Below are positions 8,826-56,858 of a stretch of DNA of 64,000 bases, in pieces. Numbering within the stretch: the stretch's first letter is position 1; each line of letters opens with the position of its first letter. Below the pieces are notes generated by a model. The model had not been told where the DNA came from. It was given only the letters and a program-made list of their open reading frames with translations, and did no database searches. The position numbers were made by a program, and so were the translations under genes. This stretch comes from Labilithrix sp. (lineage in GTDB: Bacteria > Myxococcota_A > Polyangia > Polyangiales > Polyangiaceae), in the NCBI GenBank assembly GCA_044227045.1, contig JBGAFW010000037.1, positions 1,129 through 65,128 on the forward strand, read 5' to 3'.

Positions 8826-8857
8826 CTCCCACTTTCAACCGCGGCTCGTTTGCGGCC

Positions 8858-10336: not shown

Positions 10337-10423
10337 GGCTTTTGTCGAGCCACTCTCTCAGACCTTGCCATCCAGTTCTAGCCACTTCGCGCACAGCGGA
10401 CGCTATGATCGCACTCGTCATTC

Positions 10424-11296: not shown

Positions 11297-11324
11297 CCAT
11301 TCGTAACGAAGAACCGGTGACTTT

Positions 11325-37850: not shown

Positions 37851-38945
37851 ATGTGCCCGCTCGAGATGGTCTTGGCCGAGTCGAAAACCAGCGCGGAGAA
37901 GGGAGCGAACGCGAACGCGAACGCCGAGCAAGCCCCGCTCGCGTGGGAATCGCTCAGCGACGAAGAGCTCCTGAAGACTCGTCTCTGCGATCTGCACGTG
38001 AAGATCGAAGGCAGCGAAGTCGAGCCGCGCGTTCAGAACCTCTACGCGGCGCTCGAGGCGCGCGGCATTCCGCTTCGACCTCGCTGCTACCTCGGCGACG
38101 AATGGCTCTCGCCGAACGGCGTGCCGGCGATCGCGATTCCGTTTTATCTCGCCCATCCGCGACTGAAGCAGCTCGAGCTCCGGCAGATGCTCGAGGTCGA
38201 AGGCGGCACGCCCGAGTGGTGCGACAAGCTTTTGTTTCACGAGTGTGGTCACGCCGTCGATCACGCGTATCGGTTCTCGTCCCGCCGAACGTGGCGGCAG
38301 GTCTTTGGCGATCCCCATGCCGACTACCATCCCGAGGTGTACCGGCCACGCCCGTACAGCCGAGCGTTCGTTCGTCACCTGCCCAATTGGTACGCGCAGG
38401 CCCACCCGGACGAAGACTTCGCCGAGACGTTTGCCGTGTGGCTCGCGCTTCCACAGGAAGAATGGCGAGCGAGGTATGCGGGCTGGAAGGCGCTCGAGAA
38501 GCTCGAATACATCAATCGCATCATGAAGGACGCCGTGAAGCGTCCACCGCGTGTCACCGGTGGGAGGCTCATCGCCGACGCGAGCAAAGCCAAAAAGACA
38601 TTGGCGCGTCACTACGCGGCGCGACGGAAGCTTTGGTCATCGGATTATCCGGATTTCTATGACGCCGATCTGCGCAAGATCTTCGGCGAGCTCACGACAG
38701 GTGACGAGAGCGCCGCGCGCTTTTTACGCCGTTATCGGCGCTCCATCGTCGCCGCGACCGTCAATTGGACAGGCGAGCCCAAATACACCGTCGACGGCCT
38801 CGCCAAGAAGCTCATCGCACGCGCCGCTGCGCTGAACCTCGGTACGCCGCGCGACGAGCCTGCGCTCCTCATCGACATCGGGTCGTACCTCGGGGCGCTC
38901 GTGACGAACTACCTGCATACCGGCAAGTTCAAGCGCAGCGTTTAG
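37851..38945 (+). CDS. putative zinc-dependent metallopeptidase-like protein (HExxH: HECGHAVDH)
   Basis: 364 aa. HExxH lies within FHECGHAVDHAY. No signal peptide. An alternative start at MVLAESK. Confidence 0.5.
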   Translation: MCPLEMVLAESKTSAEKGANANANAEQAPLAWESLSDEELLKTRLCDLHVKIEGSEVEPRVQNLYAALEARGIPLRPRCYLGDEWLSPNGVPAIAIPFYLAHPRLKQLELRQMLEVEGGTPEWCDKLLFHECGHAVDHAYRFSSRRTWRQVFGDPHADYHPEVYRPRPYSRAFVRHLPNWYAQAHPDEDFAETFAVWLALPQEEWRARYAGWKALEKLEYINRIMKDAVKRPPRVTGGRLIADASKAKKTLARHYAARRKLWSSDYPDFYDADLRKIFGELTTGDESAARFLRRYRRSIVAATVNWTGEPKYTVDGLAKKLIARAAALNLGTPRDEPALLIDIGSYLGALVTNYLHTGKFKRSV

Positions 38946-38956
38946 CGCATTGGCCC

Positions 38957-40348
38957 TTAGCCGCGCACCGTGCTGATGACCTCGATGAGCTCGCCGAAGC
39001 GGTCGAAGTCGATCTCGAAGCATCCGTTCTTGCGCGGCGTGCCTGGTCTTTGGACGTCTTCTCCCCACGGATTGCGGAGCCCGAGCTTCCTGACGCCACG
39101 CACCTCGCGGCATGTCATGACGGTGTAGGCGTGGTCCGGGTAGAGCCCCGTCAATCGATATTTTCGCGCAGACGTCGCCGGGTAGGTGCCGACGACGAGC
39201 GGGATCTTCTTCGCCATGATCCGTGTGAGCTCCGTCCACATGCGGTCGGGTGAGAGCTGATCCGAGTAGAAGTGACGTGGAGGCCGCCCCATCAAGATCT
39301 CGAGGATGCGATGGGAGCAACCACCTCGGCCGATCTTCTTGTAGCTACCCTTCAATCGAGCGATCGCCTTCTCGAGGACAGGCCACCAGAGCGAGGTGAT
39401 GGGTCGATGATGAGCGTTCGTGCTCGAGCCATACAAGAGCCCTCCCGATGGGCGAACGTAGAGATGGGACGTCACTGTCACGTGGCGTGCCGCATAGCGA
39501 CCCGAGCGCGCATCGATCATCTGGAACCGCACGCGATAACGGTCTTGTCCGAGGCCTACGATGGCCTTCGCCAGTACCTCGGGCCGGACATGGGCGATCG
39601 CGGCGACCGCGCTCGCGATGTAGCAGTTGGCGAGCTCGCTTTGATAAACCTCATAAGGGCTCATCGTCGAGCCGAAGAGCGGAGCCTGAAAGCGGTGAAG
39701 CGTCGGCACGAATCCAAGCTTCTGATGGAGCCCGCTCGTCGCGACATGGAGCTCGCGCGCGCCACGACGGGCACGCTGCGCGCGCTTCTTCGCCGGCGCA
39801 TGGTGGATCGTAGGCGTCAGGAGCGTCCCGACCACGGCCGCGCGTCCCGCCGCCGCGCGACCTCCAGCGGCCGCCGCCTCGACGCGCAGGCGGTCCCCAC
39901 CACGACCCGGCACACGAACGCGTCCTTGCAGCGAGCCATTCGCGTTCATGACGAGCTCGACGCGGTCGCCCGTGCGCACGTTCGTGAGCCAGAGCGTTCG
40001 ACCCGGCTCGGCGAGCGGCCGCGCCGGGTTGATGTTGAAGACGCGGATCGAGCCGTTGCCGAGATCGCGGAGGCCAATCCGAAAGGTCGCCACACATGGC
40101 GCGCGAGGCTTACCTTCGACGCTTCGTGCGCGAAACACCTCCGCAGGTCCCGGAAGCCCGCGTGGTGACCTCGCACGAAGGCGAATCAGATCGCGCGGCC
40201 GCATCGGCAGCTTGCCTTCGAAGCGTCCGTTCTCGTCCGCGGTGGCGATGACGGCGGCCTCGGTTGGTCGCACGCGTTCCTTCGGCACCACCGAGAGGTT
40301 CAACGCCTCGATCTGCGCGTAGGGCTGCGTTTTGCCTCGAATCTTCAT
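38957..40348 (-). CDS. calpain-like (peptidase C2 family) cysteine protease domain protein
   Basis: Catalytic Cys context QSELANCYIASAVAAIAHV. The real start is ATG 40348 (MKIRGK...), with GGGGG just upstream. The upstream 79 codons are discounted. Confidence 0.6.
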   Translation of the reverse strand: MKIRGKTQPYAQIEALNLSVVPKERVRPTEAAVIATADENGRFEGKLPMRPRDLIRLRARSPRGLPGPAEVFRARSVEGKPRAPCVATFRIGLRDLGNGSIRVFNINPARPLAEPGRTLWLTNVRTGDRVELVMNANGSLQGRVRVPGRGGDRLRVEAAAAGGRAAAGRAAVVGTLLTPTIHHAPAKKRAQRARRGARELHVATSGLHQKLGFVPTLHRFQAPLFGSTMSPYEVYQSELANCYIASAVAAIAHVRPEVLAKAIVGLGQDRYRVRFQMIDARSGRYAARHVTVTSHLYVRPSGGLLYGSSTNAHHRPITSLWWPVLEKAIARLKGSYKKIGRGGCSHRILEILMGRPPRHFYSDQLSPDRMWTELTRIMAKKIPLVVGTYPATSARKYRLTGLYPDHAYTVMTCREVRGVRKLGLRNPWGEDVQRPGTPRKNGCFEIDFDRFGELIEVISTVRG

Positions 40349-40482
40349 CCCCCGCTGCGTGCCGACGACCGTGACGCGGGGTCGCGATCGTGCGCTCTTC
40401 GCGCGACGCGTCGTTTCCGATCGGGAGGCAGGCGAACGTTTGCCAGGCACGCGGAAGGATCTCGCTCTACGCTGAAGCGGAG

Positions 40483-40935
40483 ATGTACCGCGTATCAGCT
40501 GGAGGACAGTATAGCTGTCCGCGCTGCCTTCGTTCGTTAACCACGTACCAGGCAGGCGCGTTCGTGGTGGATGCTTGCCATGCATGCGGCGGCCTCTTCA
40601 TCGACAACGCTGCGACGCAGGAGCTCGTTCGCTCCTTCGATCGCGATCTCGTGGGCATCGCGACGACGCTTGGGATCGGAAAAGGTGAGGCGATCGGCGA
40701 AGGCGTGATGAAGCGTGATCTGCCGTGCCCGAAATGCAGCGGCATCATGCGTCCCATTCACTTGCCGAGCGCGCACGCCGAGATCGACGTGTGCGCCGAG
40801 CACGGCACGTGGTTCGACGCCAACGAGCTACCAAAGGTGGCCCGAGCGTACCGGCGTGGTCGTGAGGGCGCCCCGACCAACATGAGCGACGACCAGCTCG
40901 CCGAGATCCTCGACAGCAAATACCGGAGCGTCTGA
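40483..40935 (+). CDS. zinc-ribbon (TFIIB-type zf) domain protein, two CxxC...CxxC units
   Basis: YSCPRC...DACHACGGLFID and LPCPKCSG...DVCAEHGTWFD. ATG 40483 has GGAG upstream. Confidence 0.6.
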   Translation: MYRVSAGGQYSCPRCLRSLTTYQAGAFVVDACHACGGLFIDNAATQELVRSFDRDLVGIATTLGIGKGEAIGEGVMKRDLPCPKCSGIMRPIHLPSAHAEIDVCAEHGTWFDANELPKVARAYRRGREGAPTNMSDDQLAEILDSKYRSV

Positions 40936-43587: not shown

Positions 43588-44661
43588 TCACTGGCGATCG
43601 AGCTCGAGGCGAGATCCGAACACCTGATGGAGTGTCGCGGCCGTCGCCGACGAGACCGGATCGCTAACCACGATGCGCAGGCGCTCGAGCTTTGGAAGCT
43701 TGGCGAGCGTGAGCGCATCGAGCGACCGATCGTCGATGTTTCCGATGAGCGTCATCTCGACGAGCTCATGGGCGCCAAACGGGTCGAGGGCCATCTGGCG
43801 TCCAATCGCCGTGAAGCGCTGGAGCCGAGGGAGCGACTCGAGGACCGATGTGACATCGCCGAGCGCGACGTCCGAGCCCCACGTTCCCTGAAGCGTGAGA
43901 GACTCGACGGCAGGAGGAGACAGGGCGACGAGCATCGCGACGATGTCGAGGACGGTCGTGTTTGGCGAGAGGAGCATGTCGACGCCGATCGTGAGGTCGC
44001 GAACGAGCTCGCCGCTCGGGTGGGTGAGCAGCGAGACGAGCACGGCGCCGAGGTCGAAGCCGCGAAGGCTCTCGTCCTGATCACGTTCGACGACGAGCGT
44101 GTCGACGAACCCACGACGCCATTGAACGCACGCCTGGTTGGGGCGATCCGCGAAGGGGCCGAGGAACGTCCCGCGATGGCGCAGGATCAGCTGCTCCGCC
44201 TTCAGCGCGGCGTTGATGTCGTTTGCGTTCTCCGCTTTGGTCTGCGCGACGATCAGCTCACCGCGCTCGTCACGACGCTCCGTGAGGATGTCGGCGTAGA
44301 CGAGGCGTGCGTCATCACCATCGCTTGCGAGACAAGCATCCTTCCACGACTGGAGAGGGTCGGGCGGTGGAAGCTTGATGTCTTCACCGTCGAGGAGCTT
44401 GTAGCCCGCGAGCGCGAGGGTGCGCGCGATGCGCAGCGCAGCGATCTCGGCCTTTACGGACGATGCGAACGTCCGCGCCCAGCGGATCTTCTTGTTGTGG
44501 CGCACGAGACGGAACGCGATCGTGTCACCACGACGGGTGACGGTGATCGTCGAGATGCGCTCGGCGGTGGTGTATTCGTCACCATCACGCCAATACGTGT
44601 AGCCAGGAATCGTCGTCTCGTAGCGCATGGCAGCACCAAACGCCGAGAGCGTGATCATCAC
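43588..44661 (-). CDS. WGR-like + TIGR02996 + LRR protein (paralog)
   Basis: ARLVYADILTERRDERGELIVAQ. N-terminal YTYWRDGDEYTTAERISTITVTRRGDTIAF (WGR-like). C-terminal LRR-like repeats. Confidence 0.7.
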   Translation of the reverse strand: MMITLSAFGAAMRYETTIPGYTYWRDGDEYTTAERISTITVTRRGDTIAFRLVRHNKKIRWARTFASSVKAEIAALRIARTLALAGYKLLDGEDIKLPPPDPLQSWKDACLASDGDDARLVYADILTERRDERGELIVAQTKAENANDINAALKAEQLILRHRGTFLGPFADRPNQACVQWRRGFVDTLVVERDQDESLRGFDLGAVLVSLLTHPSGELVRDLTIGVDMLLSPNTTVLDIVAMLVALSPPAVESLTLQGTWGSDVALGDVTSVLESLPRLQRFTAIGRQMALDPFGAHELVEMTLIGNIDDRSLDALTLAKLPKLERLRIVVSDPVSSATAATLHQVFGSRLELDRQ

Positions 44662-44780
44662 GCGCGCGATGCGCTACGGGATCTTGGTGTTGGCGCCGAA
44701 CAAAACGGACCGACGCGCGGCTGCTGCGGAGGACTCCACCGCGCCCGGGACAGCCGGTGGGGCAGGCTGGGCGGAGACGC

Positions 44781-45032
44781 TTAGCGTTTGGCCAGCGGAC
44801 CGGACGACGGGATCTCCGCGTGGTTCGGCTGGAGGAGATGGCGGGCGCGGGGCTTCTTCTTCTCTTTGACCTCGGGGTCCGCGCCGATGGCGAGGTCGCC
44901 CTGTCCGGGGGGCTGGTAGGCCGGGTCGTTGGCGATGTCCGTCGCGTCCTTCGCGGGGCCTGCGCCACAACCCACCATCGTCGTCATTCCGATGACCATC
45001 AACGACGAAACCAGCAAAGCGGCAACCTTCAT
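44781..45032 (-). CDS. small lipoprotein (83 aa)
   Basis: Lipobox MVGCGAG. Strong AAGGAG lies 7 nt upstream of the ATG on the minus strand. Confidence 0.55.
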   Translation of the reverse strand: MKVAALLVSSLMVIGMTTMVGCGAGPAKDATDIANDPAYQPPGQGDLAIGADPEVKEKKKPRARHLLQPNHAEIPSSGPLAKR

Positions 45033-45327
45033 AGGGCTCCTTAAGTGTGCGACCAGCAGACGCTCGCGACCCTCTCGTGTCCGTCTCGAGCCAAGCGTTT
45101 ACAAAGGAAGTGCCACGTTAGCGCGCCCCCATTTCTCCGGCAAAACAAGCGGCAATGGGGGTCGGGTCGGGCCGGCGAGCGCGATCACTGGGGTCGCTTG
45201 ATCCGGTCATGCGCAGGGCCGCGTCGCGAACGGCCAATCGTTGGATCTCCCTCGACCTGTGTCCGCATGTGCGACACGAATGGGTCACCCGTGATAGCCT
45301 CGTCGGAAGACTCCAGTAGACGACGCG

Positions 45328-46020
45328 ATGCATTTCCAAGTCCTTCTCGGTCGCGACCGCGGACGCGTGTACACCATCGAAGGCGGCTCTTACGTCGCGG
45401 GCAGAGGCTCGGACTGCGACCTTGTCCTTGGCAGCGATCTCGTGAGCCGGCGCCACGCGAGCATCACCGTGAACGGCACGGATGTAAAAGTCGTCGATGG
45501 CGGTAGCTCGAACGGGACGTTCATCAACGGCTCGCGTGTCCTCGGTGAGGGGACGGTCAGGCCCGGCGACATCTTGCTCCTCGGAAGCGTCGGGCTTCGC
45601 CTCCATGCGCACGACGCTCCGCCGATCGCGCCGATGGCGTTCTTCGATGCGATGCAGCGGCCCGACTACGACCCGAAGACGCAGCCGCCGCTCGCGGGCA
45701 GCCTCACCGAGGTCCCGCCGTCCACGGTGATCCGTTGGCTTGGTGTCGGCAAGAAAGATGGCGTGCTCATGCTCACGTCGCCGCCGCTCCAAGCAATGAT
45801 CTCGTTTTCACGTGGTCACATCAGCGAAGTGCTCGTCGACACGCGCAAGACGCGCGATCCGATCCAGGCGCTCACGGCGATCCTTCGGTGGAAAGGCGTC
45901 TTCGAGCTCGGCCCTCCGGATCCGGTCGGTGGTTCGTCCTTGCTCCTTGGCCTCGACGCCGTTCTTCCGGCCGTCGGCAGCCAAGCTCGCCCTTCGATGT
46001 TGCCGAAGCCTCCGCGATAA
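45328..46020 (+). CDS. FHA-domain protein with C-terminal DUF4388-like domain
   Basis: GRGSDCDLVLGSDLVSRRHASITVNGTDVKVVDGGSSNGTFINGSRV. Confidence 0.75.
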   Translation: MHFQVLLGRDRGRVYTIEGGSYVAGRGSDCDLVLGSDLVSRRHASITVNGTDVKVVDGGSSNGTFINGSRVLGEGTVRPGDILLLGSVGLRLHAHDAPPIAPMAFFDAMQRPDYDPKTQPPLAGSLTEVPPSTVIRWLGVGKKDGVLMLTSPPLQAMISFSRGHISEVLVDTRKTRDPIQALTAILRWKGVFELGPPDPVGGSSLLLGLDAVLPAVGSQARPSMLPKPPR

Positions 46021-46094
46021 TCGGTTTCGCGGAGACAAAGTGTGCACGGGCTGTCAGTAGCGTCGCGCCGCGTCGTCTGATGGGATGATCCTCG

Positions 46095-46997
46095 ATGTTG
46101 CGTGTCACCGTTTATGACTCACTCCAGCCGCGGGTGTTCACGTTCACGCAAGACGTCGTGAACATCGGGCGAAGCCTCGACAACGACATCGTCCTTCGGA
46201 CGGATATGGTCTCTCGCCGCCACGCGCGTCTGATCGTCGATCGGGCGGCCGGGCAAGTGACCCTTCAGGACAGGCAATCGACGAGCGGCACGTTCGTGGG
46301 TGGGAAAAATCTTTGGACGCGAGGCGAGGGGAAGGTCGTCGGTCCGGCGGACGACATTCGGATCGGAAACGTAAAGGTCAACGTACTCCTCGAGGTGCTC
46401 GAGCCCGAGATCGTCGCCGAGCGTGAGCGAGAATGGCTCGAGGCATTGCGAAGGAACGGATCGGACGACGACACGCGCGCGGTCTACGCCGATTGGCTCG
46501 AGGAACACGGCAGCCGCGAGCGCGCGGAGTTTCTTCGCGAGCAGATGGCGATCCGCAAGATCACGTCGGCAGAGGACCCAGCCTTTCGCGCTTCGAGTGA
46601 GCGGCTGCGTGCGCTTGCCGAGAAAGTGGGCGTCGGTTGGCGAGCGCGGGTCGCGATGCTCTTCATCGAACCGAGCACCTGCGGTCTTCCGCGTGGTCTC
46701 CCCATCGCGATGGAGATGACCTGCCCGAAGCGGTGGGAGGAGATGACTCCGACGGCGATCGAGGGCGTGCGTACCTGCAACGCGTGCAAGATGGACGTCG
46801 TGTATTGCACGACAATCGAACAAGCGCGCCAGCACGCGGCCGACGGAGGATGCATCGCGATCGACGTCGGGGTGGCGCGGAGCAAGGACGACCTCTCGGA
46901 GAGCGCGGGCCGCTATTCCGTTCGTGGTAGACCGGCCCCGAACTTCGCGACGCGTGGCAGCCCGTTACGCAAACCCGCTGAAAATCAGGGCGAATAG
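46095..46997 (+). CDS. FHA domain + TIGR02996 companion domain + Cys-rich (zinc-ribbon-like) C-terminal region
   Basis: FHA segment NIGRSLDNDIVLRTDMVSRRHARLIV...STSGTFVGGKNL. Then RAVYADWLEEHGSRERAEFLREQ. Then TCPKRW...CNACKMDVVYC. Confidence 0.75.
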   Translation: MLRVTVYDSLQPRVFTFTQDVVNIGRSLDNDIVLRTDMVSRRHARLIVDRAAGQVTLQDRQSTSGTFVGGKNLWTRGEGKVVGPADDIRIGNVKVNVLLEVLEPEIVAEREREWLEALRRNGSDDDTRAVYADWLEEHGSRERAEFLREQMAIRKITSAEDPAFRASSERLRALAEKVGVGWRARVAMLFIEPSTCGLPRGLPIAMEMTCPKRWEEMTPTAIEGVRTCNACKMDVVYCTTIEQARQHAADGGCIAIDVGVARSKDDLSESAGRYSVRGRPAPNFATRGSPLRKPAENQGE

Positions 46998-47049
46998 CGC
47001 GCTCAGCAGGACGAAACATTTTCCGTTCGAACAGGGCTGACGAACGCGA

Positions 47050-48621
47050 ATGAAGCCTCGTAGCATCGCCGTCACCCCAATGCCCCGATACGAATTCAAA
47101 GAAGGCACGTCTAGCAAGTTCTGGCAAATCGACCTCGACGGCACGGCGTTCACCACGACGTACGGCAAGATCGGAACGTCAGGGCAAACCTCTCTCAAGC
47201 AGTGGAAGGACGCCGCGACCGCGAAGAAGGAGTACGACAAGCTCATCGCCGAGAAGACGAAGAAGGGCTACTCGCTCGTTGGTGGCGGTGGCGGCAAGAC
47301 GGCCACGAACGGCGTCGGAAAGAAGACGAACGGTGCTGCTGCGGCCGCTGCTCCTGCTCCCGCGAAGAAGGCCACGAAGGTGGCAGCTGCGCCCGCCGCG
47401 AAGAAGCCCGCAGCCGCGAAGGGCAACGCTGCGCTCGAGAAGAAGATCGACGCCGAGCCCGACAACGACGACGCATGGGCGGTGTACACCGACTGGCTCG
47501 TCGAGCAGGGCGATCCGCGCGGCGAGCTCGGCGCAGTGCAGGAGCGACTGCGCACCGATCCGAAGAACAAGGAGCTCCTCAGCGCAGAGAAGAAGCTCTT
47601 CAAAGACCACGGCGACGCGCTCTTTGGCTCGCTCGTGAAGATGATGTGCAAGCCCGGCACGAAGGCGATCCCGAGCATCACGACACGCGAGCAGCTCGGA
47701 CCGGATGCGCGTAGCGACGACGGAAGCGCGCCGCCGCTCCGCCCGCGCTGGCGTGCGGGCTTCATCACGCACGCGTTCGTCGGCTATCCCGGCTACGACT
47801 GGGAGGGCGATGACGTCGACATCCCGAAGCTCCTCGAAGAGCTGATGACGAGCCCGACGGGTCGCTTTTTGACCAGCCTCAACATCGGCATGGCCAACAC
47901 GATGGATGACGGTGAGAACTACTACTCCGACATCATCAAGCGCCTCCTCAAGCTCGATGGCACGTCGCGTCTGCGCCGCCTCTACATCGGTGACGTCACC
48001 CAGGAAGAATGCGAGGTCTCGTGGATCGAGATCGGTGACGTCTCGAAGCTTTGGCCAAAGCTCTCGAAGCTCCAATCGCTCACGCTCCGTGGCGGAAGCG
48101 GCGTCAAGCTCGGCTCGATCGCGCTGCCTGAGCTTCGCGAGCTCACGATCATCACAGGTGGGCTCGATAAGAAGAACCTCGCCGCGATCTGCAATGCAAA
48201 GTGGCCAAAGCTCGAGAAGCTCGACTTGTGGTTTGGCGCGAAGAGCTATGGCGCGAATACGACGCTGAAGGATCTCAAGCCGATCTTCGACGGCAAGGCG
48301 TTCCCGAAGGTGAAGCACCTCGGCCTGAACAACTGCGAGTTTACCGACGAGATCGCGCAGCAGCTTCCGACGGCAAAGATCTTGAAGCAGCTCCAGGTGC
48401 TCGATCTCTCCGACGGCTGCATGACGGACGCCGGGGTCAAGGCGATGGCCGACGCGAAGGGTGCATTCCAGCATCTCGCTCGCCTCGATCTCTCGAACAA
48501 CTACCTCTCACCGGGGGAGCGCCTCTCGAGCACGCTGAACAAGCAGACGCGCTCGAAGCCCCAGCGCAAGCCCAGCGAGTACGACGGCGTGCAGCACCGC
48601 TACGTCTCACTCGGCGAGTAG
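47050..48621 (+). CDS. WGR domain + TIGR02996 + ribonuclease-inhibitor-type LRR protein
   Basis: Canonical WGR (YEFKEGTSSKFWQIDLDGTAFTTTYGKIGTSGQ...KKGY). AWAVYTDWLVEQGDPRGELGAVQ. LRRs (LDLSDGCMTDAGVKAMA...LDLSNNYL). Confidence 0.8.
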   Translation: MKPRSIAVTPMPRYEFKEGTSSKFWQIDLDGTAFTTTYGKIGTSGQTSLKQWKDAATAKKEYDKLIAEKTKKGYSLVGGGGGKTATNGVGKKTNGAAAAAAPAPAKKATKVAAAPAAKKPAAAKGNAALEKKIDAEPDNDDAWAVYTDWLVEQGDPRGELGAVQERLRTDPKNKELLSAEKKLFKDHGDALFGSLVKMMCKPGTKAIPSITTREQLGPDARSDDGSAPPLRPRWRAGFITHAFVGYPGYDWEGDDVDIPKLLEELMTSPTGRFLTSLNIGMANTMDDGENYYSDIIKRLLKLDGTSRLRRLYIGDVTQEECEVSWIEIGDVSKLWPKLSKLQSLTLRGGSGVKLGSIALPELRELTIITGGLDKKNLAAICNAKWPKLEKLDLWFGAKSYGANTTLKDLKPIFDGKAFPKVKHLGLNNCEFTDEIAQQLPTAKILKQLQVLDLSDGCMTDAGVKAMADAKGAFQHLARLDLSNNYLSPGERLSSTLNKQTRSKPQRKPSEYDGVQHRYVSLGE

Positions 48622-48704
48622 TCGCGCTTACGCCGATACGTTGAAACGCGAAACGAGGTTTGGGGTCTTCCCAAACCTCGTTTGCCTTAAGTGGTTTATC
48701 GGCG

Positions 48705-49490
48705 TCAGGGGGATGAGCGGCGAGCCGCGGACCCGCTCGCGGCAGGAGCCGAGGCGCTGGCGGCTGCGCCCGACGCGGGCTTCATGCTCGCGAGGAGCGC
48801 GTCGAGGTCGGCGCGCGCGTCGTGCACGGTCTTTGCCGGACCTGTCATCTTGAAGAAGTGAGGCATCCCCGGCGTCGCGACGATCGCGCCAAGGAGCGCC
48901 GTGCCGCTTTGCTCGCCGCCGCCGGGTGTCATGCCGCCGGAGAACGTGCCCTCGACCTCGACGATCGTGACGTCGAGCCCAGCGACCTTCTTCTTCGTCT
49001 GCTTGGCGCCTTTCTGCGAGGCCGCGTCGAATTGGCCGATCCAGCGATCGACGTTGGCTTGGACCGAGCCGCCGGCCTGCGTCACCGACACCTCCGCGTC
49101 TGCGCTGTCGCCTTCGGACCGCGGGACCTTGTAGGTCGCGATCCGCATCGTGCTCGGGTTGGGGACGACCTTCCACTTCGAGGGGACCTTCCACTCGAGG
49201 GACGCAGGTTCCTTGTCGGCGCCGCCGCCCATGTCCGTCGCCGGAGGCGCGTTCGGATCGATCGCGGGGTGTCCTTTGGGGAGATCGCCCGTGCTCGGCC
49301 CTCCCGCGTTCGTTGGGTCGCGTGGAAGAGAAACGGGCGGAATGTCATCAGCGCGGGGATCCGACGTGATCGCGCCTGAAGACGATGACGCGCTCGAACC
49401 TCCGGTCGAACGGCCGGCGGCAAACGCGCCGGCGCCGACGATCGCGCTGACGATGAAGAGCGTGGAGAGGCTTACGCGAGTATCCTTCAT
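48705..49490 (-). CDS. secreted Ser/Gly/Pro-rich protein, unknown function
   Basis: Internal ATG at 49490 (MKDTRVSLSTLFIVSAIVGAGAFAAG signal peptide). The upstream extension is discounted. Confidence 0.45.
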   Translation of the reverse strand: MKDTRVSLSTLFIVSAIVGAGAFAAGRSTGGSSASSSSGAITSDPRADDIPPVSLPRDPTNAGGPSTGDLPKGHPAIDPNAPPATDMGGGADKEPASLEWKVPSKWKVVPNPSTMRIATYKVPRSEGDSADAEVSVTQAGGSVQANVDRWIGQFDAASQKGAKQTKKKVAGLDVTIVEVEGTFSGGMTPGGGEQSGTALLGAIVATPGMPHFFKMTGPAKTVHDARADLDALLASMKPASGAAASASAPAASGSAARRSSP

Positions 49491-49557
49491 TCGAGTGGCC
49501 GGAAGCCTAGTGCCGTGCCCGCGAGCCCGAAAGGAGATAGTTTGGGGCCGCACGAAG

Positions 49558-50700
49558 ATGGCCGCCACACGCAAGAAGACATCGGCGAAGAACGCGAACG
49601 AGACGCCAAAGTCCGACGTCACGACCGCCGGTGAGGTCGCCAGCCCCACCCTCGAGAAGAAGCTCCTCGCCGACATCTTCGCTGCGCCGGACGACGACGC
49701 CCCACGGCTCGTTTACGCCGATTGGCTCCTCGAGCATGGCGATGCAGAGCGCGGCGAGCTGATCCAGATCCAGTGCGCGCTCGGTCGGCCTGCGATCGGG
49801 GCAAAGGCTCATCCACATCGCTTGCACCCCGACGCGAAGAACCCGCCCACGCGCGAAGAGCTCGAGGCGCGAGAGAAGAAGCTGCTTCAAAAGCATCAGA
49901 AGGCGTGGCTCGTGCCGATTCGTCCCTTCATTCGCGTGTGGACGTGGCGTCGCGGCTTCGTCGACACCGTGGAGGCCGACGGCGCGACGTTCCTCAAAGG
50001 CGCTGCGACGGTCTTCCCGCACACACCGCTCACGCGCGCCGAGCTAACGGGGATGAAGAAGGAGCAGCTCGAGCTCATTCCGAAGACACCCGAGCTCCTT
50101 CACTTGCCGGAGCTCTCGCTGTCGCAACAGCGTATTGGTCCCAAACAAGCGCATATCTTCTTGACGCCTTATCTGAAGAACGTGCGCTCACTATTCCTTT
50201 ATCGAAATCCGCTCGGCGACGAAGGTGTCACGACGCTCGCGTCCGCCGAGCACCTCGGCGCGCTACGTGTGCTGAGCATCCCGTGCTGCGGAGCGATGGC
50301 GCCGGGGCTCGAGGCGCTGTCGACGTCCACATTCTTTCCTCGGCTCACGACGCTCATCGCAGACGCCGAGTATGCCTACCAGGATCCCGAGAGCGTCGCT
50401 GTCCCGCAGGCGGTCGACTTCTTCGTACGCGGCGAGTCCCTCGTCGTGCTCTCCCTCCAGCGACTCCGCGTGGGTGACGCTGGCGCCAAGCAGATCGCGT
50501 CTGCGGCGTCCCTCTCGAAGCTCGAGACCCTCGACCTCCGAAGCAACGATGTCGGTGATGAAGGAGCGATGGCCCTCGCGAGGTCGCCCCATCTGAAGAG
50601 CCTGAAGACCGTACGCGGCGTCTTGCCCGACATCGACGAGCCGATCACCGCCGGCTTCCAAGCGCTCCAAGAGCGCCTGGGCACCGACAACGTGACGTGA
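49558..50700 (+). CDS. TIGR02996 + LRR (RI-type) protein
   Basis: ATG 49558 (MAATRKK...). PRLVYADWLLEHGDAERGELIQIQ. LRRs LDLRSNDVGDEGAMALARSPHLKSL. The upstream part of ORF 49150.. is antisense to the neighbouring gene. Confidence 0.7.
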   Translation: MAATRKKTSAKNANETPKSDVTTAGEVASPTLEKKLLADIFAAPDDDAPRLVYADWLLEHGDAERGELIQIQCALGRPAIGAKAHPHRLHPDAKNPPTREELEAREKKLLQKHQKAWLVPIRPFIRVWTWRRGFVDTVEADGATFLKGAATVFPHTPLTRAELTGMKKEQLELIPKTPELLHLPELSLSQQRIGPKQAHIFLTPYLKNVRSLFLYRNPLGDEGVTTLASAEHLGALRVLSIPCCGAMAPGLEALSTSTFFPRLTTLIADAEYAYQDPESVAVPQAVDFFVRGESLVVLSLQRLRVGDAGAKQIASAASLSKLETLDLRSNDVGDEGAMALARSPHLKSLKTVRGVLPDIDEPITAGFQALQERLGTDNVT

Positions 50701-50740
50701 GCCTGGCTTGCGCGAATGCGAATACGGGGGAGGCCGCGCG

Positions 50741-52096
50741 CTATTTTTCGGTCGCCGTGGCGTTCTTTTGGCGGATGCCGGACTCGCGGACCATTTGCTC
50801 GAGATCGCTGAAGCGTTGCGCGAGGGCGCGGACGAGGGCGCCGCTCCAGCCGGAGAGGCCGAGGCCCTCGTTCATCGTCGCGGCGTCGAGCACGAGGACA
50901 GTGACGGCTTCGAGCGCGACGACGCTGGCCGCGCGAGGCTCGTAGAGGATGAGCGCCATCTCGCCGAACACGTCTCCGGGCTCCATCGTGGCGAGCGTCT
51001 CTTCGCCGCCGTTCTCCGTCTTGCGGAATGCGCGGCATCGACCGGCGATGATCATGTACGCGGCGTCGCCCTTCTCGCCCTCGCGGACGATGAGCTCGCC
51101 GGGTGCAAACGCCTTTCGCGGTAGGTGCAGGCCTCCGTGAAGGAAGGCGCGCATCGCCTCCTGCATCTCGCGGATGTTCTGGTAGCGCTTCGCCGGATCG
51201 ATCTGCGTCGCTTTCTCGACGATCGCGCGGATGCGTCGCGAGACGCCGATATGCGCGCACGCTTCGTCGATCGACATGACCTGTCCTTCGGCGGCGCGCT
51301 TCAAGATGACGTTGCCGTCGCGATCGTAGCCGTAGGGGCACTGGCCGCTGAGGATCTCGAAGAGCAGCGCACCCACGCCAAAGACGTCCGAGCGCTCGTC
51401 GACGTCCTTCGGGTTGCCACGTGCCTGTTCGGGCGCCATGTAGTCGGGCGTGCCGACGGGGCCTGGCGCATTCATGAGGGCGCCTTCACCCGATTGAGGC
51501 TGCGAGCGAATGAGCTTCGCGAGGCCCCAATCCATCAGGTAGACCTGTCCGAAGTCGCCGACCATGATGTTCGCGGGCTTGAGATCGCGGTGAACGACCC
51601 CGCGATGGTGCGCGTAGGCGACCGCGTCACAGACCTTGAGGAGGATCTCGATGCCTCCTTCGATGCGCTCGATCGTCCCCGGCTGGCGCTGCGCGAGCCA
51701 GCGATCGAACGAGACTCCTTGAACGAGCTTCATCGTGAAATACGGAATGCCGTTCGGATCGATCGAGAGCTCGTGCACCGGGACGATGTTCGGGTGCTCG
51801 AGCTGCCCGGTCATCTGCGCCTCGGCGATGAAGGCGTCGCGGTAGAACGTCTTCGTCGCGTACGCCTTGTCGAGACGCTTGAGCGCGACCTGACGGAGGA
51901 GATTGCGATCGACCGCAGGGTGGACATGGCCCATCCCTCCACGAGCGAGCTCGTTCCCGAGCAAGAGATGAGAGGGCGTCGGGATTTTTTCTCCTGCGAT
52001 GAGCTGCGGCGCGAGCGGAGACGTGCCTGGCACGGGCACTTGCTCGATCACACGAACAGGGGCGACTTCCGGCTCGACGGAGAAGGGATTTTTCAC
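50741..52096 (-). CDS. Ser/Thr protein kinase fused to C-terminal cyclic-nucleotide-binding domain
   Basis: HRDLKPANIMV...DWGLAK...TPDYMAPE. cNMP segment GELIVREGEKGDAAYMIIAGRCRAF...GDVFGEMALI...RAASVVA. Confidence 0.85.
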   Translation of the reverse strand: MKNPFSVEPEVAPVRVIEQVPVPGTSPLAPQLIAGEKIPTPSHLLLGNELARGGMGHVHPAVDRNLLRQVALKRLDKAYATKTFYRDAFIAEAQMTGQLEHPNIVPVHELSIDPNGIPYFTMKLVQGVSFDRWLAQRQPGTIERIEGGIEILLKVCDAVAYAHHRGVVHRDLKPANIMVGDFGQVYLMDWGLAKLIRSQPQSGEGALMNAPGPVGTPDYMAPEQARGNPKDVDERSDVFGVGALLFEILSGQCPYGYDRDGNVILKRAAEGQVMSIDEACAHIGVSRRIRAIVEKATQIDPAKRYQNIREMQEAMRAFLHGGLHLPRKAFAPGELIVREGEKGDAAYMIIAGRCRAFRKTENGGEETLATMEPGDVFGEMALILYEPRAASVVALEAVTVLVLDAATMNEGLGLSGWSGALVRALAQRFSDLEQMVRESGIRQKNATATEK

Positions 52097-52219
52097 GGTG
52101 TACGAGTCTCCAGTTCTTTCTGCATTCTCACCCCCGAAGGGGATCGAGGTCCATGCTCGATTGGTTGGGTCGCGGACGGGAGATTTGCCGGTTTGGGCTG
52201 GCCGTGCCCCACGTCGCCT

Positions 52220-53356
52220 CTACAAAAACGCAGGGGTGGGCAAGGGCGCGAACGTGATGTCCGCGCGGACGCCGCGGGAGTCCGCCTCCTCTCGCAGCGC
52301 CTTCATCGACCTGCCTGGCGCCTCGATCACCTGAACTTGCGGCAGGTTCCTCGCGATGCCCGAGACCGTATCCATCACGCTCACGACATTTCGGATCGCG
52401 ACGGTGGTCACGTTGGGGAACGCGGCGATGTAGGCGTGATTCACGCTCCCCCAACCGAGCAGCTCGACGCGCCTCAGCGCGGGAAGCGAGACTCCGCCGT
52501 CGACGAGCGCTTGCCCATCGGTGACGGAGAGCGACTCGACATGCGGCAGCGACAGACCCTTGGCGTCGAGGCTGCTCCACCCGATCGACAGCTCACGGAG
52601 GTTCTCGAGCACGTTCAGCCGCGCGAGCTTCAGGCGGGCGCTGCCGGTGCCAGGCTCGATCGTGAGCGAGCGAAGCGCGCGCGGCCTCAGGTCGGCGAAG
52701 GCGAGCGAGCAATCGGTGTACGCGCTCGCTGGGAACGCGAGCTGCGTGATGAAGCGACCGACGGGCAACGACAGCAGCGCGCCGACGAGCTCGCCTTGGG
52801 ACACGCCGAGCTCTTTGGGACCGCTTCGGATGCGCGCCGATTGCACGAGCCCGCGGCGCCACGTCAAGGTCAGCCTCTTGAGGTGCTTCGACACCTCGCC
52901 GAAGAGCCCATCGTCGTGGTCATCGCGCCACGCCGCGATCGTCGTCGCGAGGTCATTCGCTTTTGCGGTGTCTCCCGCAAGGACAGCGTCCTCGTGCGCG
53001 AGCGACAGTGTGATCAGCTCACCAAGCTCGTCGCCGTGCTCTTGAAGCCAATCGGCGTAGACCACGAACGGCTCGAGGTCGTCGGGTGACCTCGCGATCG
53101 CCTCCTCGAGCCCACGCACCTCGGGGCTCGACCGTCCGCGTGGGAGCGTCTTGGCCGGGAGCCAACCCTTCTTGAGACGCTGCGCGATGAGTCGGTTCGC
53201 CTCGACCTGCGCGAGCTCGAACGTCGCGAGCTTCTTCGTGCGCTCCTTTCCGTTCGTGCCCGCGAGGCCGTCGTGAATGAGCAGCTCTCCGTCGTCACCA
53301 ACGTGGATCGCCCAGAACGCAATTCCACGTGACTCCTTCTTCTCGTACCGTGGCAT
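52220..53356 (-). CDS. WGR-like + TIGR02996 + LRR protein (paralog)
   Basis: FWAIHVGDDGELLIHDGLAGTNGKERTKK...KKGW (WGR-like). PFVVYADWLQEHGDELGELITLS. LRR-like C-terminus. Confidence 0.75.
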   Translation of the reverse strand: MPRYEKKESRGIAFWAIHVGDDGELLIHDGLAGTNGKERTKKLATFELAQVEANRLIAQRLKKGWLPAKTLPRGRSSPEVRGLEEAIARSPDDLEPFVVYADWLQEHGDELGELITLSLAHEDAVLAGDTAKANDLATTIAAWRDDHDDGLFGEVSKHLKRLTLTWRRGLVQSARIRSGPKELGVSQGELVGALLSLPVGRFITQLAFPASAYTDCSLAFADLRPRALRSLTIEPGTGSARLKLARLNVLENLRELSIGWSSLDAKGLSLPHVESLSVTDGQALVDGGVSLPALRRVELLGWGSVNHAYIAAFPNVTTVAIRNVVSVMDTVSGIARNLPQVQVIEAPGRSMKALREEADSRGVRADITFAPLPTPAFL

Positions 53357-53433: not shown

Positions 53434-55620
53434 ATGAGCGTGGTTCTTCGAACGAGAGCACCTCTATCGCTCGCGATCTTGGGCCTCGCCATGGCCGTCA
53501 CGCCGATGACGACCGCCTGCGGTGACGACGACGACGCAGGCCCAGAAGTTGCGAGCGCTCCTTACGGGCTCGACGCGCGCCCGCCGAACCCCACGTGCCG
53601 CGCTCCCCAACGCTTGATCGATCCCGATGGTGTGGCGTTCGAGTCGGCCTTCGACGCGCTCACGTTCACCGAGCCGGTGCAGATGCTGATCGATCCGCGC
53701 GACAACCAGCGCGTGTACGTGCTCGAGCGCGCAGGCTTGGTGAAGGTGTTCTCGAACGTCAAAGAGGTGAAGGAAGCGACCGTCTTCATCGACATCAAGA
53801 CCGACGTAAACTCGCAGTACCAGGAGTCGGGTTTGCTCGGGATGGCGTTCGACCCGGACTACGAGGTCAACCACTACGTCTACCTCTCGTACACTGGCTT
53901 CGGCGGCGGTCCGGTCGATCTCGGCTCGCTCATCGTTCGCTACGAGACGAAGGACGACGGGCTCACGCTCGACCCCTCGACGAAGGAGGTCGTCTTCGGG
54001 CCGCTCGTGCAGCCCTTCGAGAACCACAACGGCGGTCACATCGTCTTTGGTCCCGACGGCAACCTCTACTTCGGCCTCGGCGACGGTGGCGACGGCGGCG
54101 ATCCCAAGGGCAACGGTCAGAACCGTGATGTGCTCTTTGGCAAGCTCCTACGCATCAACGTCAAGACACTGCCGTACACGATCCCCGAGGACAATCCGTT
54201 CGCGAACGGTGGCGGCCAGAAAGAGATTTACGCATACGGGTTTCGCAATCCCTGGCGTTTTCAATTCGACAAAGCGAACGGCGACCTCTGGCTCGGCGAT
54301 GTTGGTGAAGACACCGAAGAAGAGATCGATAAAGTCGTCTTGGGCGGCAACTACGGATGGAACGTCAAAGAGGGAAAGGGCTGCCTCGAAGGGCGGCCCT
54401 GCGACGGCACGGGTCTCATCGATCCGATTGTCTCGTATGGCCACGATGAGGGGCTCTCGGTCGTAGGGGGCTTCGTTTATCACGGTACGGCGATTCCCCA
54501 TTTGGCCAGTGCGTATATCTATGGCGATACGATCAGCGGCTCGATCTGGGCGCTGTTTCCCAATAGCCCGACGCCGAGGCTCCTCAATCCCGGTGGTCCA
54601 AGCCCCACGGTCGTATCCTTTGCGCAAGACGGTGACGGCGAGCTCTATGTCGTGAGTATCGGCAATGGGAAGATCTTCAAGCTCGTCGTCCCCGATCCCG
54701 CGAGCTCGACGAAGTTCCCAAAGACGCTGACCGCGACGGGATGCTTCGACCCTGCCGACGCCACCAAGCTGAGCGCGGCGCTGATCCCCTACGACGTCAA
54801 CAGCCCGCTCTGGTCCGACGGCGCGCGGAAGGAGCGCTTCTTCGCGATCCCGGACGGGAAGAAGATCGACGTCGACCCGGACGGTGACCTCGAGCTCCCG
54901 GAGGGAAGCGTCGCCGTGAAGACGTTCTTCCTCGGCGACAAGCGCGTGGAGACGCGTCTCTTCGTTCACCACGAGGATGGCGGCTGGGGCGGATACACCT
55001 ACGAGTGGAACGACGCGCAGACCGACGCGACGCTCCTCTCCACGAACAAGACGAAGCGCATCGGCGACCGCGACTGGTACTTCCCATCGCGAGGCGAATG
55101 CTTTCGCTGCCACACCGAAGGTGCAGGCCGCACGCTCGGCCTCGAGATCGGCCAGCTCAACGGAGACTTCGTCTACACCTCGACGAGCCGCCGCTCGAAC
55201 CAGGTCGAGACGCTCGCCCATCTCGAGATGTTCTCGACGCCGCAGTCACGGGCCGGAAAAGTGATCCCGAAGCCCACCGACGAGGCCATCTCCGTCAACG
55301 ACCGAGCGCGCGCGTATCTCCACTCGAACTGCTCGATCTGCCATCGCCCAGGCGGGATTTCCCAGGGCGGAATGGACTTCCGCTACGACACACCGTTCCG
55401 CGAGATGAAGATCTGCAACGTCGAGCCTTCGCACGGCACGCTCGACGTCGCCGGCGCGAAGATCCTCGCGGCGGGCGATCCCGCGAAGTCGATCATGTCG
55501 GTGCGCACGCACGCGGCGGAGAAGAACCGCATGCCGCCCGTGGCGTCGCGGATCGTCGACGATGAGGGGACGAAGCTCCTCGATGAGTGGATCCGCGAGA
55601 CGACGACCTGCCCGCCCTGA
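53434..55620 (+). CDS. PQQ-dependent sugar dehydrogenase (GSDH/YliI-type beta-propeller) lipoprotein fused to C-terminal dihaem cytochrome c domain
   Basis: Lipobox TTAC. HNGGHIVFGPDGNLYFGLGDGG...NYGWN propeller motifs. Two CxxCH motifs (GECFRCH, NCSICH). Confidence 0.75.
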   Translation: MSVVLRTRAPLSLAILGLAMAVTPMTTACGDDDDAGPEVASAPYGLDARPPNPTCRAPQRLIDPDGVAFESAFDALTFTEPVQMLIDPRDNQRVYVLERAGLVKVFSNVKEVKEATVFIDIKTDVNSQYQESGLLGMAFDPDYEVNHYVYLSYTGFGGGPVDLGSLIVRYETKDDGLTLDPSTKEVVFGPLVQPFENHNGGHIVFGPDGNLYFGLGDGGDGGDPKGNGQNRDVLFGKLLRINVKTLPYTIPEDNPFANGGGQKEIYAYGFRNPWRFQFDKANGDLWLGDVGEDTEEEIDKVVLGGNYGWNVKEGKGCLEGRPCDGTGLIDPIVSYGHDEGLSVVGGFVYHGTAIPHLASAYIYGDTISGSIWALFPNSPTPRLLNPGGPSPTVVSFAQDGDGELYVVSIGNGKIFKLVVPDPASSTKFPKTLTATGCFDPADATKLSAALIPYDVNSPLWSDGARKERFFAIPDGKKIDVDPDGDLELPEGSVAVKTFFLGDKRVETRLFVHHEDGGWGGYTYEWNDAQTDATLLSTNKTKRIGDRDWYFPSRGECFRCHTEGAGRTLGLEIGQLNGDFVYTSTSRRSNQVETLAHLEMFSTPQSRAGKVIPKPTDEAISVNDRARAYLHSNCSICHRPGGISQGGMDFRYDTPFREMKICNVEPSHGTLDVAGAKILAAGDPAKSIMSVRTHAAEKNRMPPVASRIVDDEGTKLLDEWIRETTTCPP

Positions 55621-55629
55621 ACGACAGGG

Positions 55630-56808
55630 CTATTCGTACATCACGTATTCGGGCTCGGGCGTCAGCGCGAGCACCTCTTCCGGGCTCATCAGCTTGCCGC
55701 CGTTCGTCGTGTCTTCGTCGAAGAACAACTTGAAGCCTGCGTGGACGGACGACGGCATCGTCTTGATCAAGAAGTTGTACGTCTTGATCTTCGCGCCCTT
55801 CGGGCCGAGCCCGTCGACGCTCTTGACGAAGGCGACGCCCGGATGCGTCGTAATGACCGACTCGTCTTTGACGACGTGGCCGTTCACCTGATGAAACACG
55901 ATCGCCTTCTCGGGGAGATCGTGCGTCTTCACGATTTCAGCGAGGTAGTCGGCGACTTCGTTGATCGCGGCGCCCGTGGTCTGCCCGAACACCGCGCCAG
56001 CCTTCTGCTTACCCTTCATTTGCCATTCGGGGTCGAGCGCGAGGCCGACATCGGGTTGCCGGAGGTATTTGTCGAAGTGCTTTGCCTCGGTCAGGAAATC
56101 CGAATGACCCGGCTGAATGTTGAGTAGCAACAATCCCTTTGCGGCGCGTGCAGCCTGCAAATACTCATCCACCACAGAATCGGGGACGCGACGGCGCGAT
56201 TTGCCATCCGCGCCGGGCGCGCCTTGCACCACGACGGCGATCAGCTCGAGCACCGGCATGATCTTTCGCGAGCTGCGGTCTGCGTACTTGTCGGCAAAGC
56301 TCTGCATCTGCTTTGTCTTCGCGGGCAGGTTGCCGGCGAGTCGGCCGAGGGCAGGAGCTCCGGGCGTTCCGCAGAAGCCCACCATGCGATACGCCGGAAA
56401 GAGCTCACGACCACCACGCGGTAGCTCGGGGCGATTCACGACCGGAGGCTTCTCCGTGGAGGACGCCCCCGAGCTGCTCGACGCGGACGGGGCCGGCTCG
56501 CTTCCAAACGCGCCCGCCGACGAGGAGGACGACGTGGGCGTCGGGGCGATCTTCGCGTTCTTGGAGTCCGGCGCCGCGGCTGCCGTCACGGGCGTCTTCT
56601 TCGGAGGCGCGGGCTGTTGCCCCTTGCGCGCATCCGCCACGCCGCGGCACTGAATGCACGCCATCGCGATCACGAATGCACCGGCGAGGCGCCAAGAGCG
56701 AACCGAAGAGGGACTCAAGACCGCGACTTCGTAGCTCGTGATACGCGAGAAACCAAGCGTAGGATCCATCCCACACCTGAACGTCTGTGCTTCGTTTCGC
56801 TTGAACAT
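55630..56808 (-). CDS. lipoprotein, unknown function
   Basis: The start is ambiguous (ATG 56808 MFKRN... or ATG 56769 MDPTLG..., the latter with AGGTG upstream). Lipobox IAMAC. Ser-rich linker. Confidence 0.5.
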   Translation of the reverse strand: MFKRNEAQTFRCGMDPTLGFSRITSYEVAVLSPSSVRSWRLAGAFVIAMACIQCRGVADARKGQQPAPPKKTPVTAAAAPDSKNAKIAPTPTSSSSSAGAFGSEPAPSASSSSGASSTEKPPVVNRPELPRGGRELFPAYRMVGFCGTPGAPALGRLAGNLPAKTKQMQSFADKYADRSSRKIMPVLELIAVVVQGAPGADGKSRRRVPDSVVDEYLQAARAAKGLLLLNIQPGHSDFLTEAKHFDKYLRQPDVGLALDPEWQMKGKQKAGAVFGQTTGAAINEVADYLAEIVKTHDLPEKAIVFHQVNGHVVKDESVITTHPGVAFVKSVDGLGPKGAKIKTYNFLIKTMPSSVHAGFKLFFDEDTTNGGKLMSPEEVLALTPEPEYVMYE

Positions 56809-56858
56809 GTTGGAAACGCGGGGAACTTTCGGACCACAAAAGACGTCGCTCCTCCCGA

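Follow-up and report, generated by a model that had tools for sequence, protein, structure and literature searches.

An unusually dense cluster of TIGR02996 leucine-rich-repeat paralogues among FHA and kinase genes of a Labilithrix sp. genome

Do the genes of a compact signalling-like cluster in Labilithrix sp. form one system, or are they merely neighbours? The stretch analysed, 64,000 nucleotides of contig JBGAFW010000037.1 (positions 1,129 to 65,128; hereafter the window), carries between its positions 43588 and 53356 four genes for proteins with a TIGR02996 domain and leucine-rich repeats (LRRs), here called paralogues A, B, C and D, together with genes for two FHA proteins (FHA1 and FHA2) and a Hanks-type Ser/Thr kinase with a cyclic nucleotide monophosphate (cNMP)-binding domain (Table 1). 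An earlier note, made from the sequence, had read this assemblage as a single sensing and signalling module. We think the chances somewhat better than even that it is instead a local array of anciently diverged TIGR02996 members, in a part of a Labilithrix-like chromosome that has been rearranged, next to the parts of a Ser/Thr-kinase unit to which it is unrelated. As a combination, the annotated families to which all of the proteins belong (TIGR02996, WGR, FHA, Hanks kinase) lack functional characterisation; what we have is an unusually dense new instance and no new kind of system.

Membership of TIGR02996 was judged by the NCBIfam curated cut-off of 29.05 bits. Seven window proteins, designated by their first coordinates (2370, 12861, 22893, 46095, 47050, 49558 and 52220), score above it, which bears out the previous assignment of the ADWLxEHGD segment to this domain; within the cluster the scores are 50.5 (FHA2, 46095), 40.4 (B, 47050), 66.9 (C, 49558) and 40.2 bits (D, 52220). 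Paralogue A (43588) falls just under the cut-off at 26.5 bits, and in profile-profile comparison (hhalign, using a 57-member alignment of B's family) its match, with a probability of 99.6%, begins at TIGR02996, takes in the WRRGF motif and the LRR and spans 272 columns. The same comparison joined C to the B-family profile at 98.7% from TIGR02996 onwards, and D at 99.7% from residue 2 (WGR) onwards. The five further TIGR02996 proteins once listed for the window are reduced to four, namely the FHA fusion, 2370, 12861 and 22893. The fifth (17580–17891) has no NCBIfam match at E<=0.01 and is matched solely by a hidden Markov model (HMM) for which the window copies themselves supplied the sequences; as to coding, its GC pattern is ambiguous, and it overlaps an open reading frame (ORF) of the opposite strand.

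All four LRR paralogues had also been credited with a WGR domain. Their ORFs stand as called, gene calls being based on codon-position GC (the GC content of the window is 62–67%) and the coding pattern being seen at the coordinates given for them, and WGR is found in B and D but not in A or C. By the Pfam PF05406 gathering score of 22 bits, B contains a clear WGR domain (63.7 bits) and D one near the limit (23.6 bits), the latter also found (E=5e-7) by a WGR HMM made from B's family, which matches these two only. When the N-terminal 90 residues of A were compared alone the hhalign probability was 0.1%, an earlier partial alignment having been due to the downstream match, and in C only 32 residues precede TIGR02996, which leaves no room for WGR. 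Two of the four, then, and not all of them, have the domain. No PARP (poly(ADP-ribose) polymerase) catalytic domain was found by Pfam in the WGR proteins of the window. A longer form of C (ORF 49150–50700) was rejected since the coding GC pattern is absent over its first 136 codons and the gene for a secreted protein (48705–49490) lies opposite; the start at 49558 is supported by that pattern.

The LRRs had been described as of the ribonuclease inhibitor (RI) type and proved to be so. LRR_6 membership was taken as 23.4 bits plus a solenoid fold; B scores 23.4 bits, at the cut-off, and C 40 bits, the LRR regions of A and D being detected by profile-profile alignment only, and score and predicted fold together place the repeats in the RI/CC type. 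A to D are soluble proteins, with no signal peptide visible by eye. Their identity to one another is 25–30% and DNA-level repeats among them are confined to motif cores of ~50 nt, so that they must be ancient paralogues; recent tandem duplication is ruled out on the same grounds. Pfam and NCBIfam confirmed the remaining parts as they had been named: the FHA-TIGR02996 fusion (FHA2), the FHA/DUF4388 protein (FHA1) and the kinase, in which Pkinase (residues 48–306) and cNMP_binding (residues 328–410) share one polypeptide. The FHA domains were accepted on a score above 20.7 bits against PF00498, the beta-sandwich fold and the phosphothreonine (pThr)-binding residues (GR, SxxH and S/T-N, of which the subclade of FHA2 lacks the Asn). 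With five architectures side by side (WGR plus LRR twice, LRR only, an N-domain of unknown type plus LRR, and FHA plus a Cys-rich domain) this is a compact locus for study.

How exceptional is the cluster? An HMM built from nine TIGR02996-motif segments of the window finds 9 sites in its 64 kb (17580 included), a count that is not independent of the model, and for this reason it is the NCBIfam scores which are the independent evidence for the window copies. The same HMM finds 0 sites in 1.28 Mb from 80 related Polyangiales loci, and it is sensitive enough to pick up distant FHA-TIGR02996 homologues at E values of 1e-11 to 1e-14; the density of the domain in the window is thus exceptional. Inside the window the 10-kb sub-cluster (5 copies, with 8 copies among 47 genes) is marginally denser than random placement would give (P=0.045). 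Nor does the nearness of TIGR02996 genes to FHA1 and the three kinases reach significance there (P=0.08–0.31). Since the window holds three Hanks kinases, or ~1 per 21 kb (the background in Polyangiales loci being 1 per ~46 kb), adjacency to a kinase comes cheaply, and in kinase-rich myxobacterial genomes it should be taken as weak functional evidence.

Tandem clustering is not peculiar to this genome. In a metagenome scan with a profile built from 4 sequences, 15 of 80 TIGR02996-anchored loci had at least two copies, in separate tandem ORFs. Twenty-three of the loci were at least 5 kb long (327 kb in all), and there all ten extra copies lay within 5.5 kb of the anchor; there were 0 FHA genes and 4 kinases in these 23 loci, no more than the background would give. 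Among 27 viral loci from IMG/VR (~465 kb) ten had two or more copies, with 0 FHA and 0 kinase genes. As multi-copy loci occur in both collections without FHA or kinase enrichment, the clustering of tandem paralogues is a trait of the TIGR02996 family, and association with FHA proteins or kinases is not.

The kinase has a history of its own. Orthologues with 62–81% identity occur in 80 metagenome-assembled genomes of Labilithrix, Polyangiaceae and Polyangiales, and on this ground an origin of the window in Gemmata was rejected in favour of a Polyangiales myxobacterium. In the 10-kb flanks of these 80 loci, tblastn with the window proteins detected homologues neither of A to D nor of FHA2. No TIGR02996 gene at all lies near the kinase in the 80 loci, and an FHA gene does so in only two. 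A single locus (L001, the closest relative, with a kinase 81% identical) shares window neighbours: there the genes for the kinase (9998–11326), a homologue of g55630 (60–76%) and a homologue of the FHA/DUF4388 protein (57%) are contiguous on one strand, in that order, with no LRR paralogues. In the window these three genes stand apart and in a rearranged order: D and a glucose/sorbosone dehydrogenase gene (GSDH) separate them on one side of the kinase, FHA2, B and C on the other. It would appear that g55630 is a probable operon partner of the kinase, and that FHA1 belongs with the kinase rather than with the LRR paralogues. The kinase orthologue is adjoined by a rhomboid protease gene in L013 and has it at a distance of 6 kb in L004; the window counterpart of that gene (11325–11939, +) and the kinase are ~39 kb apart, seven TIGR02996-motif ORFs (17580 included) lying between, which suggests a large-scale insertion or rearrangement in this lineage. 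The window as a whole is a plastic region with little synteny to its relatives. No module or operon was found conserved across the genomes with orthologues. A genomic island or mobile element was also considered and rejected, no tRNA, flanking repeats or integrase having been found in the window, and a scan for promoters and terminators gave signals no better than shuffled sequence and hence was uninformative.

Paralogue B belongs to a group annotated "WGR domain-containing protein" with at least 350 matches across Kofleriaceae, Myxococcus, Pyxidicoccus and Archangium; it is single-copy-like, its orthologues being 50–60% identical across Myxococcota. These occur in at least six unrelated genomic contexts. 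They include phosphoenolpyruvate-utilising enzymes with a kinase 1.3 kb away (L085), succinate dehydrogenase (L086), a response regulator and RecBCD (L087), and M1 and M13 peptidases in one syntenic group (L172–L174). The closest orthologue outside the species (L168, 58%) lies by flavin adenine dinucleotide synthetase; a convergent gene for the phosphatase PP2C (6318–7220) follows it after 6 bp and that of a 769-aa Ser/Thr kinase (8113–10422) is 1.8 kb away.

The consensus of the B family starts with MPRYEF; in the window ORF this falls at residue 11, its second Met, and the true start is thus probably at 47080, giving a gap of 82 nt to FHA2. Between WGR and TIGR02996, B has a Lys/Ala/Pro-rich linker (47289–47415, residues ~80–122) resembling histone H1 (AAKKPAAAK), whose composition (~18% Lys+Arg, almost no acidic residues) is kept in the closest orthologues; in distant members a second WGR domain replaces it. 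From this basic linker, the precedent of the PARPs and the report of bacterial WGR genes in DNA-damage regulons (PMC8533742) we may reasonably infer that WGR and linker would bind nucleic acid or another polyanion. That the domain senses DNA breaks here would be an extrapolation carried over from the PARPs, with the basic linker of B as its one indirect hint.

FHA2 represents a family of ~48 cluster representatives, 36–58% identical over their full length, in which FHA and TIGR02996 are followed by further helices ending in GWRARVA and by a Cys-rich domain with invariant CPxxW and CxxC. Its orthologues have varied surroundings with no LRR genes nearby, and only kinase proximity recurs. L083/L084 have three tandem FHA2 paralogues, no LRR genes, and kinases 3–9 kb away; in L173 an FHA2-family gene divergently adjoins a kinase, 9 kb from a B orthologue. 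This family, often near kinases, is the one real link of TIGR02996 to phospho-threonine signalling, and the conserved fusion is the only one that can be tested. In FHA2 and its nearest relatives, the canonical STNGT loop reads STSGT, with loss of the Asn, and another subclade lacks the loop, so that binding of phosphopeptides is plausible but not assured. Bacterial FHA proteins paired with Hanks-kinase signalling include GarA/OdhI, FhaA/FhaB and the FHA protein DgcB of Bdellovibrio; FHA2 differs from them in joining its FHA domain to TIGR02996 and a Cys-rich domain, a combination of which, to our knowledge, there is no characterised example.

What is the TIGR02996 domain itself? An AlphaFold2 model of B (pLDDT 89.6) predicts WGR at residues 13–77, a disordered linker (80–120), a four-helix bundle (127–199), a loop, a beta-hairpin (230–244) bearing W-R-x-G-F, and an LRR solenoid of RI/CC type from residue 258 to the end. 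The TIGR02996 model covers approximately the first two helices of this bundle, that is, the first ~45 residues of the module. The hairpin motif and the intervening helix are kept across 123 diverse members, with L, R and G near-invariant, and from this conservation the module is ~110 residues long, comprising four-helix bundle and "WRxGF" beta-hairpin ahead of the solenoid. FHA2 shares the helical module of A to D, with FHA in front of it and the Cys-rich domain behind.

With clusters of 50% identity each standing as one representative, a profile of the 49-residue core has 30,946 matches at E<=1e-3 and, at E<=1e-10, 5,882. Among the 123 top representatives the partner domains were LRR_6 (55), LRR_4 (40), LRR_1 (32), a few WD40/TPR and WGR (1), none having an FHA or kinase domain. 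A full-text literature search for the domain returned no papers, and a search of the PDB with its profile gave chance-level matches only, no PDB chain containing it; the earlier statement that its function is uncharacterised was sound. TIGR02996 is in fact one of the larger functionally uncharacterised bacterial protein superfamilies.

Some members are found in phages. Positions 7241–16434 of L200 (IMG/VR UViG_2836862175_000007) belong to a genuine phage or prophage with primase, TerS (phrog_51) and TerL (phrog_38) genes, and seven tandem TIGR02996 genes (~250 aa; phrog_18306, function unknown) stand directly after the terminase genes. There are also giant predicted proteins of 1.6–3.7 kaa (P0171–P0180) with 4–10 TIGR02996-like modules spaced 150–350 aa apart. 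One (P0179) starts with a Mu-type portal domain (106 bits), while P0173 matches Zeta_toxin and P0176 weakly matches 2'-5' RNA ligase. Either phage "polyvalent" proteins or the read-through of gene arrays could account for them.

Several known families resemble the paralogues in part. The domain-then-LRR order usual for NCBIfam TIGR02996 (rpt_mate_G_obs) is also that of A to D; the conserved module is nevertheless ~110 residues against ~45 in the model, the host is a Polyangiales myxobacterium and not Gemmata, and an N-terminal WGR or FHA domain is a minority architecture (WGR 1 and FHA 0 of the 123 sampled). PDB 2RA8 (Bacteroides fragilis Q64V53, a structural-genomics target) is a solved relative whose solenoid is homologous to the LRR of A to D; it joins WGR straight to the LRR without the TIGR02996 bundle present in B and D, and has no assigned function. 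B matches STM4015 (NF038076, a hypothetical equivalog) with 238.6 bits over model positions 14–290, its C-terminal half spanning the whole model, but below the cut-off of 275, and A and C give weak partial matches of 24–27 bits. The likeness of B to STM4015 is homology at the domain level only; no radical S-adenosylmethionine or other STM4011–4014-type neighbour was seen in the window, and a literature search for STM4015 gave nothing relevant. To the Leptospira LIC_11051 family (NF047464, cut-off 1000 bits) B has a domain-level match of 68 bits. The WGR+LRR proteins of Leptospira likewise have an N-terminal WGR followed by LRRs (PMC11674859); they have been discussed as adhesins, whereas the window proteins carry the TIGR02996 insert and no signal peptide by eye. 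The PARP-type WGR domain (PF05406) is matched by B and D, and the B-family profile matches the WGR of PARP3 (2EOC, E=3.7e-6); the consensus is Y-G-K-I-G in place of W-G-R, and PARP catalytic and regulatory domains are absent. The true module boundaries, 2RA8 as a solved relative without the module and the tandem arrays in phages are handles gained in this analysis.

We therefore return to the reading favoured at the outset. Each paralogue would be a stand-alone modular adaptor composed of an N-terminal reader, the TIGR02996 module and a C-terminal, protein-binding LRR. The reader may be WGR with a basic tail, for nucleic acid or another polyanion, or FHA, for phospho-Thr, or may be missing. 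The array would reflect the general habit of this family to form tandem paralogue clusters, and the cNMP-kinase, g55630 and FHA/DUF4388 protein would constitute a separate signalling unit, split here by paralogues and the GSDH gene. Only FHA2 might plausibly bridge the paralogue set and the kinase unit, its FHA domain being a possible reader for the products of a nearby kinase.

A number of points weigh against this separation. The adaptor mechanism is one that we infer, and we know of no ligand for any member of the TIGR02996 family; the contiguity of the kinase unit was seen in one close relative (L001), so that either arrangement may be the ancestral one. Others agree with the integrated module of the earlier note, in which the LRR/WGR paralogues would sense ligands or nucleic-acid damage, the kinase would phosphorylate them or their partners, and the FHA proteins would read the phospho-Thr. 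FHA1, FHA2 and B are co-oriented with gaps of 74 and 52 nt, as are D and the kinase, with D upstream (the strand had been given correctly and the gap as 124 nt; we measure 123); with the same strand and such short gaps, co-transcription, and hence local functional coupling, of FHA1-FHA2-B and of D-kinase is possible. A kinase lies within 2.5 kb of B-family genes in 3 of 6 independent contexts (a fraction of ~0.1–0.15 being expected, in a small sample), one of them with an adjacent PP2C phosphatase. A 10-kb stretch of L173 contains a kinase together with an FHA-TIGR02996 gene and a B orthologue, L083 too has kinases near FHA2-family genes, the conserved fusion links the domain to phospho-Thr signalling, and the presence of bacterial WGR genes in the DNA-damage regulons cited above would suit a damage sensor. 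Yet no TIGR02996 gene accompanies any of the 80 kinase orthologues, and L001 has the kinase unit without a single paralogue. The kinases near B orthologues (387, 769 and 451 aa) are not orthologous to one another, B itself occurs in at least six contexts, and three syntenic B loci adjoin M1/M13 peptidases instead. Neither the family-wide census nor the proximity test in the window showed FHA or kinase enrichment, and the subclade of FHA2 has lost the Asn of its loop. One integrated module is in our judgement very unlikely.

Unlikely too, if not to quite the same degree, is a variable array related to conflict, its LRR paralogues acting as RI-like immunity-type inhibitors, effectors, or anti-phage or anti-defence factors. 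It would explain the tandem arrays, deep divergence and presence in phages, and it has on its side the diverged arrays of many genomes, the phage with seven tandem copies, the giant proteins with a Mu portal or Zeta-toxin domain, the plasticity of the window, and an LRR which resembles RI and the bacterial effector LRRs LegL1 and RipG4. Against this, neither A to D nor the two FHA proteins, g55630 and two outlying paralogues matched anything in PADLOC-DB v2 (where the kinase matched generic kinase models only), and the two window proteins compared with PHROGs (49558 and 46095) had no counterpart there. No toxin, Rhs, PAAR or delivery domain was found by Pfam in ~40 window genes (smaller ORFs lying outside the scan), these being peptidases, transporters and metabolic genes, and the window has no detected integrase or tRNA. 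B, as a conserved single-copy-like group which adjoins housekeeping genes in one lineage, is untypical of fast-evolving conflict genes, and WGR and FHA at the N terminus point to regulation inside the cell. The F-box/LRR receptors invite a further idea, that the module is a docking piece plugging variable LRRs and readers into a shared partner or into each other, the paralogues being hetero-oligomeric. It would fit that the ~110-aa module stays constant, its charged and aromatic residues near-invariant (PxDDxPRLVYADWLxxxGDxRGE...RG), while the rest of the protein varies, that tandem arrays are common, that 4–10 modules may be fused in single polypeptides, and that FBXL2, FBXL17 and RI are, after 2RA8, the structures closest to the LRR; and because 2RA8 is a WGR+LRR protein without the module, the latter is an added function. 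The likeness of the LRR to FBXL2, FBXL17 and RI is a structural analogy only, however; in sequence TIGR02996 shows no resemblance to the F-box, we know of no Skp1-like partner, no partner protein was identified or found co-occurring, and the conserved residues may just contact the module's own beta-hairpin and LRR cap. We regard docking as a long shot, and would give equally little credence to its extension to docking or oligomerisation complexes in myxobacteria, planctomycetes and phages, with FHA2 here recruiting LRR paralogues to targets phosphorylated by the cNMP-kinase.

Table 1. Genes of the cluster and its flanks, followed by the outlying TIGR02996-motif ORFs (positions in the window)
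Feature	Coordinates	Strand	Description
Paralogue A	43588–44661	-	Unknown N-terminal domain (~95 aa), divergent TIGR02996, LRR
Lipoprotein-like ORF	44781–45032	-	83 aa
FHA1	45328–46020	+	FHA (63 bits) and DUF4388 (PatA_N, 28 bits)
FHA2	46095–46997	+	FHA, TIGR02996 helical module, conserved Cys-rich C-terminal domain
Paralogue B	47050–48621	+	WGR, Lys/Ala/Pro-rich linker, TIGR02996 helical bundle, beta-hairpin, STM4015/2RA8-type LRR
Secreted protein	48705–49490	-	261 aa; between B and C, on the opposite strand to both
Paralogue C	49558–50700	+	TIGR02996 and RI-type LRR, without WGR
Kinase	50741–52096	-	Hanks-type Ser/Thr kinase (Pkinase, 137 bits) with C-terminal cNMP-binding domain (cNMP_binding, 82.2 bits)
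Paralogue D	52220–53356	-	WGR, TIGR02996, LRR
GSDH	53434–55620	+	Pyrroloquinoline quinone-type glucose/sorbosone dehydrogenase fused to dihaem cytochrome
g55630	55630–56871	-	413 aa; no Pfam or NCBIfam match
Protein E	2370–3254	-	Outlying TIGR02996 protein, 29.1 bits (at cut-off); WRxGF-like motif downstream
Protein G	12861–14051	+	Outlying TIGR02996 protein, 32.2 bits
103-aa ORF	17580–17891	+	ADWCEEHG motif; unconfirmed as TIGR02996 protein and as gene
Protein I	22893–24356	-	Outlying TIGR02996 protein, 44.6 bits

Among the neighbouring genes, that for the secreted protein breaks the paralogue array between B and C; its product has an N-terminal segment like a signal anchor (MKDTRVSLSTLFIVSAIVGAGAFAAG) and no family match. 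Within 20 kb of one another are genes for a calpain-type Peptidase_C2 (38957–40585, -), a papain-type Peptidase_C1 (57971–59173, -) and Peptidase_Mx (37851–38945, +), a eukaryote-like protease set surrounding the cluster. Elsewhere in the window a 975-aa protein (30513–33440, +) with MVP_shoulder (59 bits), Vault_3 and Vault_4 domains and no NCBIfam match is homologous to the major vault protein of eukaryotes. A gene at 17888–19132 (-) specifies FKBP-type and cyclophilin-type peptidyl-prolyl isomerases fused in a single protein of 414 aa, and a 290-aa product (10424–11296, +) shows a weak match (28 bits) to the fibrillar collagen C-terminal domain COLFI.

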